From: Balanoglossus misakiensis
Taxonomy: Eukaryota; Animalia; Hemichordata
Direction of reading: 5' to 3'
Length of the DNA stretch: 64,000 nucleotides
Assembly: GCA_040954595.2 (NCBI GenBank)
Contig: CM082581.2
Coordinates: forward strand, 6,068,699 to 6,132,698
A program made the position numbers and the translations under genes. Position 1 is the first letter of the stretch; every line of letters begins with the position of its first letter. This document shows, one piece after another, positions 1 through 59,824 of this stretch. The notes below the pieces were generated by a model, which saw only the letters and a program-made list of their open reading frames with translations, had not been told where the DNA came from and did not search any database.

Positions 1-520
1 CGATCAGGCCCGATATTATCCACACGACCGTTGAAATGCACGCCAGCTTTTTCGCCGACATTTTTGCATCGTAAGTGAAGGGGTAGTTGATGGCAACGTA
101 GCGATCGATAGCGATGCAGCACAGGTGGTTGATCGACGAGGTGCACGCCACTATGTCGATCGCCAGCCAAAACTGGCAATAGACGCTGCCGAAGTACCAC
201 TTCCCGGCGAAGTGGTACGTGAGGGTGGTGGGCATGATGAGGGAACCCATCAGCTCGTCGGCGAAGGCGAGGTTCAGGATGAACAGGTTGGTCATGGTCC
301 GCAGGCGCCGGTACTTGAACACCGCCACGATGACGAACACGTTGCCCACGATCGCCGTCAGCGTAATCACGGCGAACACGATCCCCAGGACCATGTCGCC
401 GGCGCCCAGAGTCGACGCGGACTCGTCCTGTCCGCAGGAAGCGCCGCTGGAGTTGGCGAGGTCGCTCTCCGATGAAACATTGCACGGATTTCCCAGGTCC
501 ACATCATCAGGAGCGGCCAT
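1..520 (-). CDS. Aminergic class A GPCR (adrenergic/dopamine/octopamine/serotonin receptor-like), N-terminus to TM4; 3' end lies outside the window
   Basis: Manual translation from ATG at 520: MAAPDDVDLGNPCNVSSESDLANSSG...AIVGNVFVIVAVFKYRRLRTMTNLFILNLAFADELMG..MP..GKWYFGSVYCQFWLAIDIVACTSSINHLCCIAIDRYVAINYPFTY..VVWIISGLI. It contains TM1 GN, TM2 LAxAD, the amine-binding Asp3.32, DRY, the TM4 Trp and N-glycosylation sequons (NVS, NSS). A splice acceptor (tttatgcag, AG at 540-539) just upstream implies a 5'UTR intron. Missing from the ORF track because there is no stop in the window. Confidence 0.95.
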   Translation of the reverse strand, partial: MAAPDDVDLGNPCNVSSESDLANSSGASCGQDESASTLGAGDMVLGIVFAVITLTAIVGNVFVIVAVFKYRRLRTMTNLFILNLAFADELMGSLIMPTTLTYHFAGKWYFGSVYCQFWLAIDIVACTSSINHLCCIAIDRYVAINYPFTYDAKMSAKKLACISTVVWIISGLI

Positions 521-3500
521 CGTATCTCCAATTCACAACTGCATAAAACGCACCAACACAAAATTTGAGGGTGATTTCTGTATGAGGTAATCTAGCGTGA
601 TAACGACGATATGTGTCGCCGTTACTAGGTGCAAGAAGAGTAATACGTGCATAGATTCGATATCAAGCGTTGCCTGTCTAACAAACGTCGTTCCTTACCC
701 GTATGCAAGGTGCAAACTTAATATTTTTTGAAAACTTTCAGAAGTTCCGAGCGGAAAAAGGCTTGACTGAATAGGCGAACACCTGTTAACGCCACTGCTG
801 GACTCGCCGGTACAGGAAAGTGAAACTGCCGCTCGGTGTGACTGACGTGCTCTCTCCTCCCCGAGATAATCGCCCATGAAAACGAGAACGACGGGACATG
901 AATTGAATATTTCAATATTTGCAGGTACCAGCTTCGCTCGGTCTTGTGCGGATGTAGTACTCAAAGCGACAACGTTAACATCACGGTGAATGAACCTCTA
1001 TTTCCCCATATAGCTTCGGCTATACGCAGTGTGTGTAAGGTCGGTTGTCGACGACGCGTGCCGCTCAGAGGTGAACGTTGCCAGTTCCTGGAGAGAGGTG
1101 GCGCGAATAGTATTCCGCCGCCGCGGCCGTTTGCTAGTGTACCACCGGTGCGAATGTACAGCGAGACACCACGGCATGCCGTTAGACGCCACTTAACGAC
1201 TGAAAAACATCTTGGCACAAAATCAATACGAATCCATACATCGGCATCGATCTCTTGTGGGGAAATGCAAGTGCGACGATGTGCCGAACGCGGTGGCCAA
1301 TCCACAAATGACTCGATAACACCACATTGCGCGTGTACTTCCCCCAAGTATCCGCACAGCGCATGCGCGAAATGAGAGTTATCTTGGCTGGCTTTTCCTG
1401 ACCTCCCTATCTTCGCACAAGGGAAGCTGGCATGTGCTCTTGAGGATGCATTCAAAAACTGACCGACGATTGCGAACTTAATCTGGTGTATGTGCCATTT
1501 CGCTTTCACAGTTTAAAATAATCGCCGTGAAATTTATGCATGGCGGCTATCCAAGTCGTTGCCCAGCAGTAAGCATATGACAACAACTTGTTATTTTTCA
1601 TGGCGGGAAGCTTGGGATAACAAGGCTCCTGATTTGTCCTTCGCCAGGAGAAAAACGCCCTCAAAGTACAAAGACAACATAACCTGAATAAAGGTCGACA
1701 CTCTACCCAATGTCAGATATTTTCAGTACACACCGAGTAAATATCATGTGTTGCCACAGAAACAATTTTCGCGACAGCTTGCGAAGGCGATACTTCGCCA
1801 CAGGAAACGGTGTGACCGAAGTCATCACATTTCAACACTAGCCCTGCGCAGCACACACTGGCCCTAAATCCATCGCGGTTCAACTGATCGACGATCAACT
1901 TAATCGAAAGGGAATTCTAGTTCAACAAAAGAGAGCATTTATACCAGATGATAAGGTATTATCTCTTTACCCATGCATTAAATCTTAAAATTAACAAAAA
2001 AATGTGTTTTTGAGTCGACACCAGGGATTGGGCAATGTTTATAGCTGTACTCAGAACTTGAACAGTCTGCGCTGGGTGGCTGTTTACTGTGTCAAAACAC
2101 AACGCCGACACATGCCTGTATGAATATTTCACACTGATTTTCCCAACTCTCTATAACAGAGATGGCTGAAAATGACGCTCGCGTGACACCCCGGCGGTAA
2201 CAGCTGGCATCAGCTTCGGCTGGATTTACTGGTATAGATAATAAGCCCTAGATTCTGTCAAACATTTGGAAGAAGTAAAATCGTAAACCAGAATGAAAAA
2301 AACGCACCAAAGACTGAGCCAGCCTATGGACAGGTAATGTTTGGGGGAATTAGTAATGCATGTATTTCTGTTGCGACTCACACACAAAAATACAATATAC
2401 GTCTTTTTAAAGCGATTGTCGTGAAAATTAGGTCGAATTTGCTGGAATTGAAGTCAACACTTCACACAGTTGATTTCTTGCAACGGACATGGTAGCTCAA
2501 GTACAATGTACCGTGATGGAATGACTATTAAAGCCAGCGAAAGTGCGATCGTCTTCACAGTTCTCGTCGAGGTGTTAATTGTTTTGAATTATGCAAGACA
2601 GGGCGGCCGCTGTGTGGAGATGCCCCAAGGGCCAGATGGCGTATGCTCCAGCCGGCATTCACTTGCGCTTTCACCGAACCTCCCATTGTCAAGCATTGCA
2701 AAACACGTTACGTCACCAGCAAGTGTTTTCCCCGCCTGGTGGCCACGTATAGTGACACCCGGACAACCGACACAATGAACTCCCCATTTGACGTTTGCTC
2801 CCACGGCAATGATGGCATCACGATTTACTAAAGAAAACAAGCATTATATACGCTCACAACCTGTGACGCACAAGTACAAGAATTGTCCCCTCAATTCTGA
2901 CGCTTTACAATTGTAAGGGAAATTTAAATAGTCGCAATTTTATGCTATTGCCAAGACACAACTGACGACAGCAGAACTGGTATAATTCGAAGCTTTTTGT
3001 CTAATTACTACAGGATTATGTCATTTCCGCATTGCTAACACAGGACTACTGGAATCGCCGATTTTCATTGTGTTTGTGTTATTTGTGTCACGGTTGAAGA
3101 GCGGAATGATCTGTTTTTGTGTGACAAATTCTTGCCCTTGTGGTTGTGGAATGAAAACACTGTAAAAGCGGATCTGGTAATGTCAACGACTATAGGGGCA
3201 TTTGAGAGGCTTTAGATTGAAATGAACAGGGAAGGCCCGTACTTGCGGAATCTGTGCGCCGTCGGCCATGGAAATCCGCAGCAAACCGGTCCGTCAAAAC
3301 CATTCATCTTCATCGTCGACCGATGTTGTCACCTACACCCCGGCGACGGTGCGGGGAATGGGCAAAAGCGTCGCCGGCGGAATTGAAGAAAAGCCCCGAC
3401 AAATCCGCCGCCGATGCCCGCTGGCTTTATTGGAGGGAAAAGTCGAATCGATCTCGATGGGAGCAATGACGGCATCGGCGGTGCCGGTGATTTACTTGGT

Positions 3501-24496: not shown

Positions 24497-25795
24497 GTAA
24501 GTACATACTTGCAGTAAAATGTTTCATCGGTAAAGTAAGTGTTCTGACTTATATTTGTTAGACAAAGCCCAATATTTATTTTAAAGCGTGCTCAAACTTC
24601 ACGTCACCGGAAAGGGTTAAATTCGTGAAAACATTCATAAACATGGTTTAAAAATCGAGAATAAATCAACTGGTGTAGGTTAATTACAATGAACTAAGAA
24701 AATCCAGATCTCTTCGATTTGACTACTTCTATACATGTACTTGGATGCTACTTTGAGCGCGTGCGCGTGCAATAATTGTTTTAAGTCTGCTTTGCAGTAT
24801 TCTAAATACCCGGGATAGTATTGCTCCGACACGGGCCCATTTTTAGAACGCTTACTTTGTCTTTTCGCTTCTGGGGTTTCCCGTGTCGTGTTTACAAATT
24901 TCAGTGCGTAAACAATGTCTTTCTGCCAGATAAATGAAACATTTCAGATGGGCTCCGGCAGCTCCGACGTCATGACCCGCAGTGACAGCGCAAATGGAAC
25001 TCCTTTGTGGCGCGGCTCCAGATTCGCCGAAGTCGACTTACTTTCCGAGAAAAAGAAACGAAAAGTGAACTAGGTCAATGGCGGCGTCAATTGAGGGAAA
25101 TTCCCTAAAATTTAGCGAAAACATCCAGGGTTTTTTCTCTCCCTATATTTCGCGTTGGGGTTACGAAATGTACACTTTCAGCGATTACGCCAACCCATGA
25201 TCGTATTTTAAGCACATTTTACGGTAAACACGACGAATTGTGACTTGAACAATCCGTATAAGCGCGGGTGGCGCTCTATACGTCAACAAGGGTAGCGTGT
25301 TCAACCCTGACCCAGTTACGCCTTCCCAATGGACCCTTGTTTTCGCTTCGGGGTCCAAATTTAAATAGACAGCGAACAAAATGGCGGTGACGGTTGCCAA
25401 TAGTGATATCTGCGCGGTCGAAAAACACATTCGTAACAAGGCGACCATATTGAAACTGACGCCATTGCCACGAAAGAATAATCAAAGCGGTTTGTAAATT
25501 AAAAATTAACCCAAATAGACATTCCGATACATCTGGTGACTATGATGCACCGTTGGACCGATACTCATTTGATATAATAACAGCTGCAAAATGAAAGTAG
25601 TCGAAATATTTAATTTTTTTGTCCGATGTGACCTAAAGTGAAGATGTTCTTCTACACTGCTGCTTAGTAAACAAACATTTGGTCATTTAAAGACGCCGTG
25701 TTACTTATCAAGTGACTAGCGAAATGATATTTCACACAAGAACAATTAATCCCATATTTTACATGCGTTTTCTTTCGTATCTGTCTTCGTTGCAG

Positions 25796-25865
25796 AATGA
25801 TCAGGCGGAGATCTATGCAGACTTCATCCGCCAAGATATTATTTCAGACATACAGACGCTCTTGG
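25796..25865 (+). CDS. ETS paralog A, coding exon 2 (pre-PNT helix)
   Basis: ttgcag|NDQAEIYADFIRQDIISDIQTLL|gtaagg; phase 0/1; homologous to SDIENL in paralog B. Confidence 0.85.
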
Positions 25866-26016
25866 GTAAGGGCGTACAAACAGGTGGGTGTTGCTATTGG
25901 CAATACACAATTTGAAAACTATATCGACCGGAGATGTATATTGATAGAAGCGAGAAGTCATCTCGTCTTTTTATTTTACATGGAATTTTTTTTTTTGATA
26001 TTTTACAAATTCACAG

Positions 26017-26262
26017 ATTGCCCCAATTGGACCGTGCCCTGCGTGTCAAAATTTCTGACTTTTGTCAACCAGAAGTTTGATTTGAAAAACAAGTTCCCAG
26101 CGCTGGCCGAGAAATACTCAATAGACGGCTACAAATTGTGCTCCATGTCGAAAGAACTGTTCACAGAAACATTCAACAACTATAATTGCCAAAACGGCGA
26201 CACTCAGGGTCTTTTTCACGATGTAGAGATGGTTACAGGGTACATTGAATGTCTGAAAACGG
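26017..26262 (+). CDS. ETS paralog A, coding exon 3 (Pointed/SAM domain)
   Basis: cacag|DCPNWTVPCVSKFLTFVNQKFDL...IDGYKLCSMSKELF...GYIECLKT|gtatgt; PNT pattern 'W...V..(W/F)L' and 'G..LC.(L/M)S...F'; phase 1/1. Confidence 0.9.
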
Positions 26263-26459
26263 GTATGTACGTGTATATAGTATATAGCTAAAGACATGTA
26301 TAATCGAGTCGCTCTTGGTACCAACATAATGGCCTTCTGTGGCATTTCTATGTTTTGAAAAGGGTTCGCTCGATTTCGCTTATTTTTCCGAGGGATGGGT
26401 AGCAGCCCTTCGCAAATCTGCGGACTCTATATAATATACATTTTCATCTCTTATTTTAG

Positions 26460-31184: not shown

Positions 31185-31489
31185 TCACACAGTGCCATAC
31201 ACACGCACGACCCCCGGGCAGAATTTGAAGTGCAGTTTCCCCCGGCACTTCTCCATCACCTTCTTCTTTTTGTAGTCCCTCATGGCGCGCGCCATTTTCT
31301 GATACGTCATCAGTTTCTTGTGGCCCTTCTCCCGCCCCCATTGGTTGGCGATGGACTCCTTCTCTCTGCTCACAAACCGGAAGAGGCCCTCAGATCGGTT
31401 GATCCAGCGAACGCAGTGTTTGAACTCGCCACCGTCGAGGTGTTCCAACAGGAATTTCCAAAGTATCTTCTTCTTCTTTTTCTTCGGTT
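31185..31489 (-). CDS. Spi/PU.1-type ETS factor paralog B (PNT + AT-hook + ETS, about 304 aa), terminal exon (ETS domain)
   Basis: ctag|[83 protein letters not shown]..GTV*; same 305-nt coding length and phase as paralog A. Confidence 0.95.
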
Positions 31490-31712
31490 CTAGACCCAAA
31501 ATAAAACCACCAGAAAGCATGTATAAATGAACATGATAAAACGTTTGAAACCGACTTTCATGTTGTGGATTACTTGATCGTGAACAAAAAAGACAAAATC
31601 AGTACGGAGTCTCAGCTGAGTCACATTAAAGATGTTGACGACGCCACTATTCAGGATTTTCCATCAGAATATTTGATTATTTCATAACTACGGTATTCAA
31701 CACTCGGCTTAC

Positions 31713-32415: not shown

Positions 32416-32540
32416 CTGGAAAACAAACTGAGAAAAAAGACACACATCAGATAATTTGCTTTGAAGGAGGACTGAACCACAAAATAATCAAAGAATACTG
32501 CCATTTTAATAAACCCCAAACCATAGAGGGTTCGAATTAC

Positions 32541-32747
32541 CTGTGATCCAACATTCTAGATAACCCCTGATGATATCCGCGTCTTTACCAAAACTCTCCC
32601 GGAACTCTCCTTCTGACAAGGAGCATAGCGTGCTTCCATTCATTCCAATTTCGCCGGCCAGTGACGGGATGTTGTTGTCCAAGGCAAGCCTCTCATTCAC
32701 AAATCCTAAAAAAGTCACTACGTCATGTACATCCCATTCATAACAAT
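32541..32747 (-). CDS. ETS paralog B, coding exon 3 (Pointed/SAM domain)
   Basis: tttcag|CYEWDVHDVVTFLGFVNERLAL...MNGSTLCSLSEGEFRESFGKDADIIRGYLECWIT|gtaatt; phase 1/1. Confidence 0.9.
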
Positions 32748-32776
32748 CTGAAACAATAAACAAACACACTGTTGTT

Positions 32777-34055
32777 GAAAATTCGCAAAGTCGAAAAATT
32801 GTCATTTTTGGATGATTTTCATGAGCTATAACCCATGATTTTTTCAAAAAATGACGAAATTTTGAAAATTCGCAAAGTCGAAAAATTGTCATGTTTGGAT
32901 GATTTTCATGAGCTATAACCCATGATTTTGTTTCAAAAAAGACGAAATTTTGAAAATTCGCAAAGTCGAAAAATTGTCATTTTTGGATGATTTTCATGAG
33001 CTATAACCCATGATTTTTTTCGAAAAATGACGAAATTTTGAAAATTCGCAAAGTCGAAAAAATTTCATTTTTGGATGATTTTCATGAGCTATAACCCATG
33101 ATTTTTTTCAAAAAATGAAGAAAATTTGAACTTTCGCAATGTTGAAAAATTGTCATTTTTGGATGATTTTCATGAGCTATAACCCATGATTTTTTCAAAA
33201 AATGACGAAATTTTGAAAATTCGCAAAGTCGAAAAATTGTCATTTTTGGATGATTTTCATGAGCTATAAGCCATGATTTTTTCAAAAAATGACGAAATTT
33301 TGAAAATTCGCAAAGTCGAAAAATTGTCATTTTTGGATGATTTTCATGAACTATAACCCATGGTTTTTTTCAAAAAATGACGAAATTTTGAAAATTCGCA
33401 AAGTCGAAAAATTGTCATTTTGGATGATTTTCATGAGCTATAACCCATGATTTTTTCAAAAAATGACGAAATTTTGAAAATTCGCAAAGTCGAAAAATTG
33501 TCATTTTTGGATGATTTTCATGAGCTATAACCCATGGTTTTTTTCAAAAAATGACGAAATTTTGAAAATTCGCAAAGTCGAAAAATTGTCATTTTTGGAT
33601 GATTTTCATGAGCTATAACCCATGATTTTTTCAAAAAATGACGAAATTTTGAAAATTCGCAAAGTCGAAACATTGTCATTTTTGGATGATTTTCATGAGC
33701 TATAAGCCATGATTTTTTCAAAAAATGACAAAATTTTGAAAATTCGCAAAGTCGAAAAATTGTCATTTTGGGGTGATTTTCATGAGCTATAACCCATGAT
33801 TTTGTTTCAAAAAAGACGAAATTTTGAAAATTCGCAATGTCGAAAAATTGTCATGTTTGGATGATTTTCATGAGCTATAAACCATGATTTTTTTCAAAAA
33901 ATGACGAAATTTTGAAAATTCGCAAAGTCGAAAAATTGTCATTTTTGGATGATTTTCATGAGCTATAACCCATGTTTTTTTTCAAAAAATTACGAAATTT
34001 TGAAAATTCGCAAAGTCGAAAAATTGTCACTTTTGGATGATTTTCATGAGCTATA
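32777..34055. repeat. Tandem array of an AT-rich ~87-bp unit (about 14.7 copies), flanked by a 61-bp direct repeat
   Basis: Unit gaaaattcgcaaagtcgaaaaattgtcatttttggatgattttcatgagctataacccatgattttttcaaaaaatgacgaaatttt; 15 unit starts spaced 86-88 bp apart. Flanks 32716-32776 and 34056-34116 match with 2 mismatches. Confidence 0.97.
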
Positions 34056-56291: not shown

Positions 56292-57556
56292 TAGGGCGAA
56301 GGACCAGACCGGGCCTTCCAGTTTACGTATCATTCAGAGAAAGGGAAATCCGTCGCCAGTTTCGACTATAAGACAAACCATGAAACCGATACCAGTTTTA
56401 TGGGACCGATTTGAAGAAATATTGAACGTCAGGCCTCTGTGACCGTCACGCCTCTCTGAAGTATCTGAAGGGAGAGAGACTTTGGGGTAAATCCGCGGAT
56501 TACCAACCTGGCACACTTACAACAGTTCCAAATACATTGTACACCTTCTCATGTACTCGCAAAGCAAGCTAAGCCACCCCTTCGAGTAATACATACAAAG
56601 TACTGTAGTCGTGTCAAATGAGACAGGAATTCCAGATATCAGTAAAAAATAATATTAGCACAGAGGTTTGCTTATTTCTGAATTGGTCTCTACTTCATCC
56701 ATAAATTGGAGTGGCCAGACAGTTTTATTGTCTGCCAGGTGAAGTGACGACTTGTATAATAAAGATCGGGTCAACTGAGGACGTCCTTGGTCATTGTTGC
56801 GCATGTGCAATGAAAGTTGAATACTGCATGTGACTGCACCGAATTCACACCAATACCAGTGAAAACGAAGGTACGTCTATTAGCTAACTATCCTAACCTC
56901 ATGTTCTAAAAAATGAACGTCGGTCATGATCATAAACCGCCAAGTTGCGACACTGCTGCGCGTGTGACGTACAATGATACCAGCGTGACGTGTCTGTCTT
57001 GGTATGCGGGGCAGCGGTGGTATCGATCGATCGAATGCACCTGGCAACATCCGGGTGTAACATTGGGGCGATCTCTAATCTCCAGATCCGTGTGTATGAG
57101 CAAACTGGATTATGAGACTTTCGTGTAGTCTTCAAGCACGACTTCAGCATGTCCACGTCCGGGTTGTTTGATATCTAAGAAGGTGACGTGGGGACCCATG
57201 AGTTTCGTTTCGTGTGAGAGTTCTCCAAGGTCACGATGTGACCCTACTGGGTGTGTCACCGCTGTTTGCCATATCTCGTCTCGTATCTGCATTGGTCACT
57301 TGGCATTAGTGGATCCGGAGCGTTTATCATTGAGTGCCGGGGCACAAGACTGGGCTTTGCTCAGGCTTAGTTTTATCATAGACCCGCCCCAGGGTCTACG
57401 ATTTTATCTTGCTTAGATTATGTTGAGAAATAACCAACGACCACAGGTATTATGGCCAACTTTTGTAAAATCATTTAATTGTCTAAGGATTTCAAGTCCC
57501 TAATTTTGCCCGCCCAAATGATTAATTTTCAGTGACGTGACGGGACAAGTGCCAAA

Positions 57557-59029
57557 ATGGCTGCCGGAATCGACTTTGCGCTCGGCGCTGAGCTAAGTAA
57601 TAACTTGCAATTGCTGACCTGTTATGTCTGTACGAACCCAATGACGTCACCGAAGCTCCTACCTTGTTCCCATACGTTTTGTGAGCAGTGTCTCGAACTG
57701 TGGGTGGGGAAGAACCAAGGAAAGCTGCCGTGCCCCGTGTGCAGAGAAATGTGTCCGATGCCCCCTCAGGGGGTCAAGGGGCTGCGAAACAACCAATTCG
57801 TGGAAGGTTTGCTGGAGATATTCTCCAAGAGAGAAACCGAAGCGGTGATGAGATCGTGTGAAACCTGCCGGCAACCGGCGGTGGTGTGGTGCGTCGACTG
57901 CTGCCAGTTCTTCTGCCAAGACTGCCGCAGGTCGCACGAAATTGTTCGCTCGCTGAGCACTCACAGACTCTTGACTATGGAGGAGTACAACAGCGTCGAC
58001 GCGCCCAGGGCCTGCCAGGCGCATCCAGGTAGCCTGCTTGAGCTGTTCTGCGACCGTTGCCAGGCGACCCTTTGCAGAAAATGCGCCGAGGAAAACCACG
58101 GCGGGGCGTATCACGAGGTTGTACCCGTGGAAGAAGCGGTGAGAAAGTACCTCCCACTACTTAAGAACTACGCTTTCCAGGCGGACACATTGATGACGTC
58201 ACTGAAGAACGACGAAGAGTTGCTCGAAAGTACGGTCGATGATTTGAAGAAGCAAGAGCGAGAAATCACCGACAGAGTGTCGGCAGAAGCAGCCGAAGCT
58301 ATAAGGAAGATAAAAGAAGAAGAAGAACGACTTCTTCAAGAAGCAGCGAGAATCTCCGGCGAGAAAAAATCCCAGGCTCGCATCGGACTGGAAGCGATTA
58401 AGCTCGACATTGAACGTATGAAAAATGTACAAACCTACACCTCTGACCTACTGCAGACTGGAAACCGGTGTGACGTATTGAACAGAAAGAAAGCTTTGGA
58501 CGAAGGGTTCGAACACGTCAAACAAGCAGCCGCTTCACTTCAGAGGAAAATCCCACCGCAGGCCGTCTTAAAGTTTGAGATTAACGACTCGTTCTTCGCG
58601 GGGAGCACCGCCATGGGCAGTATCAGTTGCGAAGAGCGACCGCAGGTTTTCACCCAGGCGGACGACGTCGACGCGCTGCCGAAGTCGGGAGAGCCCTCGC
58701 AGTCGACGCCCGGGCAACCAGCAAACCGAACCAAGGACAGCAACACGACAGTCACGTGTCAAATTTGCCACTGCGAAGTTCACCGCAGAAAAACCCTACC
58801 CTGCAGTCATACATTCTGTGCGAATTGCATCGATTTAGAATTTGGCGGACAAACCAACGGTTCGTTCTGCCCACAATGCGGCTACGAAATCCATCCTGTA
58901 ATGAAGTTTGGGAAAATGCCGAAAGGAACTTTCGATCATCGTCTGGATCAGTCCCTTGTTCTTCCCGGCTATCCGAGAAACACCGGGTGCATCGTCATTG
59001 AATATCACTTTCCTGGCGGAATACAAGGG
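57557..59029 (+). CDS. TRIM-Deltex fusion E3 ubiquitin ligase (about 586 aa), coding exon 1: RING, B-box1, B-box2, coiled coil, second RING, start of Deltex C-terminal domain
   Basis: CYVC..LPCSHTFCEQC..CPVCR (RING-HC); CETC..WCVDC..FCQDC..H..H; CQAH..FCDRC..LCRKC..H..H; E/K-rich coiled coil; CQIC..LPCSHTFCANC..CPQC (RING-HC); GKMPKG..LPGY..GCIVIEYHFPGGIQG; donor gtaggt at 59030. Acceptor ttttcag lies 25 nt before the ATG. Confidence 0.95.
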
Positions 59030-59243
59030 GTAGGTCAAGTTTGCTACACGTATTTCTCACCCAAGCAATCACAAAGTTCATTACTCCGTAAATGTCATGT
59101 AGAATGATGTAACCTTAATATAGCTGGTTCATGAACTCCATAATTTAGTGGTGGATTTCTTTAATGCATTGGAAAACCAAGCTCACTTCAACATAATTTT
59201 GGCTAAGCGGGAAATCCTTATTTTGGAAATATTATTTTCACAG

Positions 59244-59458
59244 GAAGGCGACCCAAGCCCTGGCAATAAATACCGGCGTGCCACCTTCATGGCGTACCTA
59301 CCGGCCACTGACGAGGGGAAGGAAGTGCGCAAATTGCTGCACACCGCTTTCAAACGAAAGCTGACGTTCACCATCGGCACATCACGTGACGGAACCCCAG
59401 ACTGCATCATTTGGAATGGAATCGACCACAAGACAAGCACAACAGGTGGACCAGAAAG
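59244..59458 (+). CDS. TRIM-Deltex fusion, coding exon 2 (DTC domain)
   Basis: ttcacag|EGDPSPGNKYRRATFMAYLPATDEGKEVRKLLHTAFKRKLTFTIGTSRDGTPDCIIWNGIDHKTSTTGGPE|gtacgt; phase 0/2; classical DTC motifs AYLP..EG, FTIG, WN.I.HKT. Confidence 0.95.
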
Positions 59459-59751
59459 GTACGTGACTCTGAGAATTGTACATCATGGTAAATTTGTCCC
59501 AGCGATTCCAAGTTCAGCGAACCGATCACAAAGCCAATTCTTTAAAAAAAAATACTATCACAGACGTTTATACCCATGAGCGGTTTCACCGTGACTCCAA
59601 CGTGACCTTTACGTCCTTGCATTTTGTTGGTATGGGTTCAGCAATTCTTTCTTTCTTTGACTCTGTTATATACTGGGTCAACTCTATTACATCCACAGTC
59701 CCAATGAATGACTATTCATTTATGGCTAATGGATGCATGTGTCTTCTTCAG

Positions 59752-59824
59752 GAATGGATATCCCGATCCGGGTTACTTACGGCGAGTTAAAAAGCAGTTG
59801 GCAGCCAACGGCGTGAACTTGTGA
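59752..59824 (+). CDS. TRIM-Deltex fusion, terminal exon
   Basis: cttcttcag|RNGYPDPGYLRRVKKQLAANGVNL*, TGA at 59822-59824; Deltex GYPDP.YL..V...L...G terminus. Confidence 0.95.

Follow-up and report, generated by a model that had tools for sequence, protein, structure and literature searches.

A conserved TRIM-Deltex fusion gene with a rebuilt Deltex pocket in the acorn worm Balanoglossus misakiensis

The 64,000-nucleotide stretch of the Balanoglossus misakiensis genome analyzed here (the window; assembly GCA_040954595.2, contig CM082581.2, positions 6,068,699 to 6,132,698) carries on its forward strand, at 57557-59824, a real, spliced and conserved gene in which the RING, B-box and coiled-coil module (RBCC) of a TRIM protein is fused to the RING and Deltex C-terminal domain (DTC) of a Deltex protein. 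TRIMs are classified by what domain they carry at the C-terminus; the Deltex enzymes are those RING ligases known for placing ubiquitin on ADP-ribose and nucleic acids. RBCC-RING-DTC proteins unite these two ligase families. The DTC of this gene (the window gene) is maintained, and the pocket with which Deltex enzymes hold and modify ADP-ribose has been rebuilt, a combination that leads us to lean towards a lysine-type TRIM ligase with a repurposed tail.

The gene comprises three exons (see the table at the end) with GT..AG boundaries at both introns, which join into a 1761-nt open frame of 586 amino acids (aa) plus stop, and Pfam matches together with inspection of zinc ligands give the domain order RING1-Bbox1-Bbox2-coiled coil-RING2-DTC. 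The whole RBCC, RING2 and the start of the DTC are carried by the single open exon 1 and both introns fall within the DTC, as the initial annotation had read from the letters, and the two junctions that it proposed, 59029/59244 and 59458/59752, are each crossed exactly by a read contig. The contigs came from three public runs of one sample (X1, X2 and X3), all labelled 'DNA?'. In X3, one contig runs from 58793 to 59029 and continues at 59244, which excises intron 1 exactly and thereby links RING2 to the DTC core, and a second joins 59458 to 59752, skipping the 293-nt intron 2; the interior of intron 1 has no X3 cover, whereas X1 and X2 cover both introns and contain neither joint. From the joints, found in X3 only, we infer that this run, labelled like the other two, is RNA. 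Cover by X3 is absent over 56500-58311, which includes RING1 and the B-boxes, and at its depth of 3-5 this is uninformative either way; at that depth none of its contigs bridges the coiled coil to RING2. The linkage of RBCC to DTC is indicated at the sequence level by the open exon 1 and by the NCBI gene model of the orthologue described below. X1 and X2 also contain variant contigs that probably represent a second haplotype; these show 10 silent and 6 non-silent codon changes in the DTC and no insertion or deletion (indel), and their changes at aa 503 and 540 lie near the pocket, with none at its four replaced sites. Searching the 64-kb window by tblastn with eight proteins matched only this locus. 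A pyrimidine-rich stretch ending in AG at 57520-57535 (+), ~24 nt before the start codon, makes an upstream non-coding exon possible, and a short element at 59601-59640 within intron 2, to which numerous unrelated contigs align at very high depth, is a genome-wide repeat.

Exon 1 had one close relative among 120 matches, a protein of Ptychodera flava that is 48% identical over full length. P0121 (XP_070540252.1, 571 aa), the longer of its two isoforms, has the RING-B-B-coiled coil-RING-DTC order of the window gene and a Pfam DTC match of 7.8e-42 over positions 2-133 of 133. Identity to P0121 is 74% in the DTC (99/133; aa 452-584 of the window gene), 59% in RING1 (24/41), 40% in the coiled coil (62/154), 84% in B-box 1, 51% in B-box 2, 52% in RING2 and 19% in the linker, and the window gene keeps 45 of 53 near-invariant DTC columns, the eight lost including those equivalent to DTX2 R535, H582 and E608. 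A single-sequence fold had a predicted local distance difference test score (pLDDT) of 38, and an AlphaFold model was made of the orthologue P0121 on a 62-row alignment; its mean pLDDT is 85.7, with values below 50 only in the linker (330-382) and one short loop. The DTC block of that model, mostly at pLDDT 90-98, matches the DTX3L structure 3PG6 with a template modelling (TM) score of 0.95 and an rmsd (root-mean-square deviation) of 1.1, so that the DTC fold is predicted to be intact. The RING1 of the model matches that of TRIM2 (rmsd 1.8-1.9), a 111-residue helix (186-296) is followed by a helix at 299-323, both at pLDDT about 90 or more, and Foldseek matches the model to the tripartite motif of TRIM28. 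Given the retained columns, the identity to the orthologue, the orthologue fold model and the variant contigs without an indel, the DTC of the window gene is a maintained domain and not a decaying one.

By sequence the N-terminal half belongs to the TRIM family, with a zinc-complete N-terminal RING, two B-boxes and a coiled coil. We scored the RINGs on a TRIM-RING profile built from 32 rows and a Deltex-RING profile built from 94 rows. RING1 of the window gene reaches 78 bits on the TRIM profile vs 50 on the Deltex profile, and its RING2 is a near tie (47.5 bits Deltex vs 49.0 TRIM); the RING2 of the orthologue is Deltex-type (61.7 vs 48.8). Across the fusions all 11 RING1s favor the TRIM profile and 10 of 11 RING2s the Deltex profile, which disfavors an origin of RING2 as a duplicate of RING1, with the proviso that the window gene's RING2 itself ties. 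The linchpin Arg is present in 8 of 11 RING1s, the window gene included, and in none of the 11 RING2s, and it is absent from human Deltex RINGs (PMC7615817). The coiled coil of TRIMs is antiparallel and puts the two RING1s at opposite ends, a separation that makes TRIM activity usually require clustering of dimers (PMC7752041). By analogy, the coiled coil of the window gene product would form such a dimer.

We located the pocket positions by counting on PDB alignments and by aligning 167 near-full DTC domains to a profile. ADP-ribose is contacted in DTX2 by R535, W578, H582 and H594 (PMC7442474), and H582 and E608 are the catalytic pair, at either of which substitutions impair the reaction, E608Q markedly (PMC7615817). 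At the equivalent sites of the window gene R535 has become F506, H582 D552, H594 N564 and E608 Q578, and W578 is kept as W548. The changes thus take in the Arg that binds phosphate, the residue that stacks on adenine and the two catalytic residues: the His-Glu pair of the Deltex family is absent, and among the ADP-ribose contacts R535, W578 and H594 only the Trp is left. P0121 has Y, W, E, N and Q at the five sites, with the same four replaced. For DTX3L, H707A abolishes ubiquitylation of single-stranded DNA, Y719A and E733A impair it, and the nucleic-acid reaction depends on RING-DTC geometry (PMC11460948). Judged by these human DTX2 and DTX3L mutants, ubiquitylation of ADP-ribose and of single-stranded nucleic acid would have been lost, and the product of the window gene probably ubiquitylates neither ADP-ribose nor nucleic acid. 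The 'complete RING-DTC unit' of the initial annotation is thus complete in length and fold and not in its active site, where four of five pocket residues are replaced, and the same replacements speak against its suggestion of ADP-ribosylated or nucleic-acid substrates; reading substrates in the Deltex way would better suit intact paralogues (e.g., P0122 and P0138). An aromatic residue for Arg and an acid for His could, as a speculation, suit a cationic ligand.

Outside the fusions, the 150 DTC domains without an N-terminal RBCC keep the Arg in 147 cases, the His in 123, the Glu in 124 and an aromatic residue or His at position 594 in 147; taking the four sites together, 111 keep all, 21 have lost one, 16 two, 2 three and none all four. 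Among 15 fusion loci with a full DTC, 6 are intact and 9 altered, two having lost two sites, three having lost three and four having lost all four. The Arg is lost in 8 of the 15 vs 3 of the 150, with F, Y or W in its place in 7 of the 8 (Arg kept 7/15 vs 147/150, Fisher p 8e-8), in a survey whose query, itself an altered DTC, may enrich altered matches. A lamprey protein, P0124, lacks R, H and E and stands apart from the window gene in the DTC tree, so pocket loss happened elsewhere too. That tree also contains a 28-row clade, including a diatom protein (P0133), whose members mostly have 2-3 DTCs, often with Pro for the catalytic His and a small residue for the Glu, the Arg being kept.

The window gene is not alone. 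A full HMMER search with P0121, considered for the best 150 of its 12,985 matches, belongs to a survey of 288 proteins plus the window gene product (289), and fusion counts from this set are lower bounds. A DTC occurs in 153 of these proteins and a DTC together with a B-box in 21, which reduce to 16 loci after removal of the isoform duplicates P0001, P0139, P0285 and P0286 and of P0213, whose B-box lies behind the DTC and which groups with clupeiform DTX3L-like rows and was counted as a non-fusion; P0239, with a partial DTC, was excluded from residue counts and from the DTC tree. There are accordingly at least 16 RBCC-DTC loci in four phyla (acorn worms, amphioxus, molluscs, soft coral and sardine): the window gene, four in P. 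flava, two in Glandiceps talaboti, three in Branchiostoma and one each in Dendronephthya gigantea, Haliotis rufescens, H. asinina, Potamilus streckersoni, Saccostrea echinata and Sardina pilchardus, all save the window gene being known as database gene models. RING1 is present in 16/16 and a second RING in 11/16, being missing from the other five. Intact and altered paralogues occur side by side, 1 intact and 3 altered in P. flava and 1 of each in G. talaboti. Several relatives have features of their own: the abalone fusion P0153 (Haliotis rufescens XP_048249660.1) is RBCC-Macro-RING-DTC with an intact pocket, so that a single TRIM combines a module that reads ADP-ribose with one for ubiquitylating it; the two isoforms P0148/P0285 of Sardina pilchardus, gene models only, combine a TRIM25-like RBCC with a DTX3L-type RING-DTC and an intact pocket, apparently a separate vertebrate case; and the precomputed Pfam lists of P0129, P0131 and P0135 contain PARP, RING and DTC, one of them also a bromodomain. 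Searching the ESM Atlas clusters of >=50 members, we found no cluster with B-box plus DTC and no feature match >=0.9.

Trees and RING profiles bear out domain shuffling, the origin first proposed for this gene, as the likely one. In the RBCC tree (30 rows; 12/47 candidate non-DTC TRIMs failed the RBCC slicing rule and were excluded) the window gene and P0121 are sisters (100/100) within a six-row clade (98/97) that also holds P0284, P0143, P0144 and Saccoglossus P0150. All five full members of this clade miss R535 and H582, and the P0150 model (389 aa) ends, by eye, in the apparent first residues of a DTC. Around it lies a 14-row clade (99/96), every named row of which is an acorn worm; the sister of the six-row clade holds the intact P0122 and P0138, alongside TRIMs ending in NHL, WWE-PARP or an OGFr-like domain. 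Two proteins from this same part of the tree deserve mention: P0151 (Glandiceps talaboti XP_077991496.1) is a TRIM-PARP fusion, RBCC-KH-WWE-PARP catalytic, and an OGFr-like stretch closes P0158. Resolution is poor in the DTC tree (165 rows, 132 columns); there, too, the window gene and P0121 are sisters, and the other fusions group with different partners, that of the sardine with KH-RING-DTC and Engraulis DTX3L-like proteins (98), those of amphioxus with two different RRM-Macro-RING-DTC proteins (99, 94) and that of the coral with a Macro-RING-DTC protein (85).

A single origin of all fusions was rejected on the RBCC tree (16 rows, approximately unbiased test p-AU 1.3e-7; 4.3e-52 without the sardine), a result that tail loss or replacement would give as well. 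On the DTC tree it was rejected for all 15 rows (p 1.6e-5) and weakly for the 12 left on omitting two long rows and the sardine (p 0.034), and the pairwise DTC tests did not reject acorn worm with amphioxus (p 0.13) or acorn worm with sardine (p 0.06). These DTC tests are noisy, as is evident from the pairwise non-rejections and from one constrained search, which came out 18.8 log units better than the free quick tree. Several separate fusions are therefore likely, not proven, and the acorn worm fusions by themselves are compatible with a single origin. The RING-DTC part probably came from genes of the DTX3L-like kind, which in older lineages carried RRM and a macrodomain (10.64898/2026.04.23.720386). 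As a single exon holds RBCC, RING2 and the start of the DTC, either the fusion took place within an exon or an intron has since disappeared. The trees suggest that, early in the history of acorn worms, an in-frame join within an exon placed an RBCC ahead of the RING-DTC end of a DTX3L-like gene, after which one branch would have kept the pocket and the window gene's branch would have rebuilt it.

Our preferred reading, to which we give somewhat better than even odds, is that the product dimerizes by its coiled coil, attaches ubiquitin to protein lysines by means of RING1 and uses its DTC as a non-catalytic target-recognition module. RING1, with its linchpin Arg, would be the catalytic RING of a lysine-type TRIM ligase; the dimer would be antiparallel and, on the model of TRIM biochemistry, RING1 would be activated when dimers cluster on a target; and the folded, rebuilt DTC would be the recognition end. 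Recognition is the likelier role for this tail than catalysis, as the residues that bind and ubiquitylate ADP-ribose have been replaced. Several observations weigh against this reading or blunt it. Transcript support amounts to two spliced contigs at depth 3-5 from one run (X3), and the fold model is that of the orthologue, not of the window gene's own protein. B-box 1 (84%) exceeds the DTC in conservation, and the identity of the DTC is not special, the intact pair P0122/P0138 being at 67% and the altered pair P0143/P0284 at 47%. RING2 keeps its eight zinc ligands along with 52% identity to the orthologue, and a Gly at the linchpin occurs in 19/94 Deltex-type RINGs, so RING2 is not necessarily dead and may still work; that RING2 is lost in three altered fusions and kept in others fits more than one fate. 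W578 and a second His are kept in the window gene DTC, so some nucleotide binding could remain. A link between fusion and pocket loss, strong by count, did not emerge when independent branches were compared (4 pairs, sign test p 1), and with so few pairs and a null test we do not claim correlated evolution.

Other explanations assign the parts differently. The protein could be a decoy or regulator that uses its coiled coil to pair with intact TRIM-Deltex paralogues of the P0122/P0138 type, or competes for ubiquitin-conjugating enzymes (E2) or partners, and so dampens ADP-ribose-linked ubiquitin signalling. Intact and altered RBCC-DTC paralogues do coexist in P. flava and G. talaboti, and closely related TRIMs form regulatory hetero-oligomers (PMC13591260); however, the intact paralogues are known from those two species and not from the window gene's own, and the linchpin Arg and zinc ligands kept by RING1 would be superfluous in a protein that served only as a decoy, which leaves us thinking this rather unlikely. 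If instead RING2-DTC were the working ligase, RING2 would recruit the E2, the rebuilt DTC would present a protein for lysine ubiquitylation and the RBCC would mainly oligomerize or localize the whole. An intact RING2 adjoining the DTC as in Deltex suits this arrangement, as does the ubiquitin discharge to lysine that persists in a DTX2 pocket triple mutant (PMC7442474), but no RING2 among the 11 has the linchpin Arg and RING2 is the ring that five of the loci lack, and we consider it a quite unlikely assignment. A dimeric Deltex-type enzyme that has kept binding and ubiquitylation of ADP-ribosylated or nucleic-acid substrates, with Asp or Glu for His perhaps allowing a changed chemistry, has in its favor the retained fold, W578 and neighboring His, an acidic residue at the His position shared with the orthologue, and the proximity of the family to ADP-ribose signalling that the WWE-PARP of P0151, in the same clade, and the macrodomain of P0153 imply. 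It seems improbable to us, as both orthologues have replacements at four of the five pocket residues tested, the change equivalent to E608Q among them, and as the RING2-DTC linker is by eye 2 residues longer than in P0122/P0138 and the nucleic-acid reaction of DTX3L depends on RING-DTC geometry. That the locus is an artefact or relic, either two adjacent genes or a TRIM with a decaying Deltex remnant outside the functional protein, would agree with the lack of any X3 contig spanning RBCC to DTC and with the P. flava isoform P0001, which shifts frame after intron 1 and loses most of the DTC. Set against these are the one open exon that holds RBCC, RING2 and the DTC start, the splicing of both DTC introns, the annotated full-length orthologue and a DTC conserved at 74% vs 19% for the linker, and we judge an artefact very improbable.

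Full-text literature searches, judged for the top-ranked papers by title and start of abstract and with most subscription papers outside their coverage, yielded no description of a TRIM-Deltex fusion. In the available text of a paper on TRIM evolution (PMC3503706), a survey of fish TRIMs (PMC3137616) and a TRIM review of 2026 (PMC13591260) the word 'deltex' was not found, and neither were 'TRIM' or 'B-box' in the available text, figures aside, of a 2026 Deltex review (PMC13658767) or the DTX3L preprint (10.64898/2026.04.23.720386), whose Figure 1d and supplements on metazoan DTX3L architectures could contain a fusion of this kind. Among the gene-family expansions tabulated by a study of bivalves is a DTC orthogroup (PMC8382680). 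The fusion is apparently undescribed in print, and the novelty first raised for it stands to that extent, although as 16 loci in four phyla it is no one-off. With natural pairs of intact and rebuilt pockets within one genome, the family makes a role of the DTC without the catalytic pair directly testable. Its intact members would act as dimers that ubiquitylate ADP-ribose and that carry a lysine-type RING as their second. More boldly, and as a possibility that we hold tentatively and would not bet on, animals may have repeatedly and independently grafted the Deltex RING-DTC onto TRIMs, giving two ubiquitin-ligase chemistries per dimer, with intact members ubiquitylating ADP-ribose or nucleic acids and members like the window gene reading a new ligand; if true, this would make the rebuilt pocket the first case of a DTC specific for something besides ADP-ribose or nucleic acid. 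The weight of all this is limited, since domain capture by invertebrate and fish TRIMs is already known and function here is predicted only.

Elsewhere in the window, 2-529 (-) is the start of a rhodopsin-family G-protein-coupled receptor cut by the window edge (Pfam 7tm_1 4.8e-37). An ETS-domain exon (3.4e-23) at 31188-31595 (-) has a Pointed/SAM exon upstream on the same strand at 32509-32976 (-), and a second Pointed/SAM exon on the opposite strand, at 25728-26288 (+), suggests two ETS-family genes face to face.

Table. Exons, introns, domains and pocket residues of the window gene (positions in the window)
Feature	Position	Strand	Basis or remark
Coding exon 1	57557..59029	+	491 codons; RBCC, linker, RING2, first 40 aa of DTC; donor GT at 59030
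RING1, C3HC4, TRIM type, aa 22-62, linchpin Arg63	57620..57745	+	Pfam; profile scores
B-box 1, aa 101-137	57857..57967	+	Pfam ANCHR-like B-box 4.3e-7; 31/37 identical to orthologue
B-box 2, aa 151-191	58007..58129	+	Pfam zf-B_box 1.1e-13
Coiled-coil region, about aa 192-345	58130..58591	+	Helices in orthologue model
Linker, poorly conserved, aa 346-400	58592..58756	+	10/54 identical to orthologue
RING2, C3HC4, aa 401-441, Gly442 at linchpin position	58757..58882	+	Eight ligands present
DTC first part, aa 452-491	58910..59029	+	Pfam DTC positions 2-38 at aa 452-490
Intron 1	59030..59243	+	214 nt, GT..AG, phase 0; P. flava isoforms diverge at same residue
Coding exon 2	59244..59458	+	DTC core; Pfam DTC positions 42-110, 3.9e-22
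F506 (DTX2 R535)	59286-59288	+	Exon 2
W548 (DTX2 W578, kept)	59412-59414	+	Exon 2
D552 (DTX2 H582)	59424-59426	+	Exon 2
Intron 2	59459..59751	+	293 nt, GT..AG, phase 2
Coding exon 3	59752..59824	+	DTC end and stop; 77% identity with orthologue's final 22 residues
N564 (DTX2 H594)	59753-59755	+	Exon 3
Q578 (DTX2 E608)	59795-59797	+	Exon 3

Compared with known systems, the C-terminal half most resembles the RING-DTC of DTX3L and DTX3 (3PG6; DTX2 6Y22/6Y3J), with a C3HC4 RING directly before a full DTC and W578 kept, and like DTX3L it is without the two-residue insertion that DTX1 and DTX2 have before the R535 position. Among solved structures exon 2 matches DTX3L 3PG6 best (3.9e-16), followed by DTX1 and DTX2, in line with the DTX3/DTX3L type originally assigned to it. 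It differs from DTX3L and DTX2 in having an RBCC at its N-terminus, not RRM/KH/Macro or WWE, an extra N-terminal RING and four replaced pocket residues; DTX3L proper has N-terminal RRM and KH-like domains, with Macro in older forms (10.64898/2026.04.23.720386), and exon 1 gave no Pfam match to its RRM/KH-like or Macro domains at E up to 0.1. The N-terminal half has its best solved matches in TRIM3, TRIM2 and TRIM56 and shares with ligases of this kind the RING, two B-boxes, long coiled coil and RING1 linchpin Arg, the difference being the RING-DTC as C-terminal module. TRIM classes are known to arise by domain capture, sometimes convergently, as in the zebrafish finTRIM-cyclophilin and chromodomain forms (PMC3137616) and amphioxus TRIM-MATH (PMC3503706); unlike finTRIM-cyclophilin and TRIM-MATH, what was captured here is a ubiquitin-ligase unit in its own right, is found in four phyla and has an altered active site in 9/15 loci. 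The nearest known protein remains P. flava XP_070540252.1, a database gene model of which no published account was found and which NCBI automatically named 'DTX3L-like isoform X1'; it has the domain order, the position of the first intron and the four replaced sites of the window gene, and departs from it in being 48% identical over exon 1 and in having Lys, not Gly, at the RING2 linchpin.

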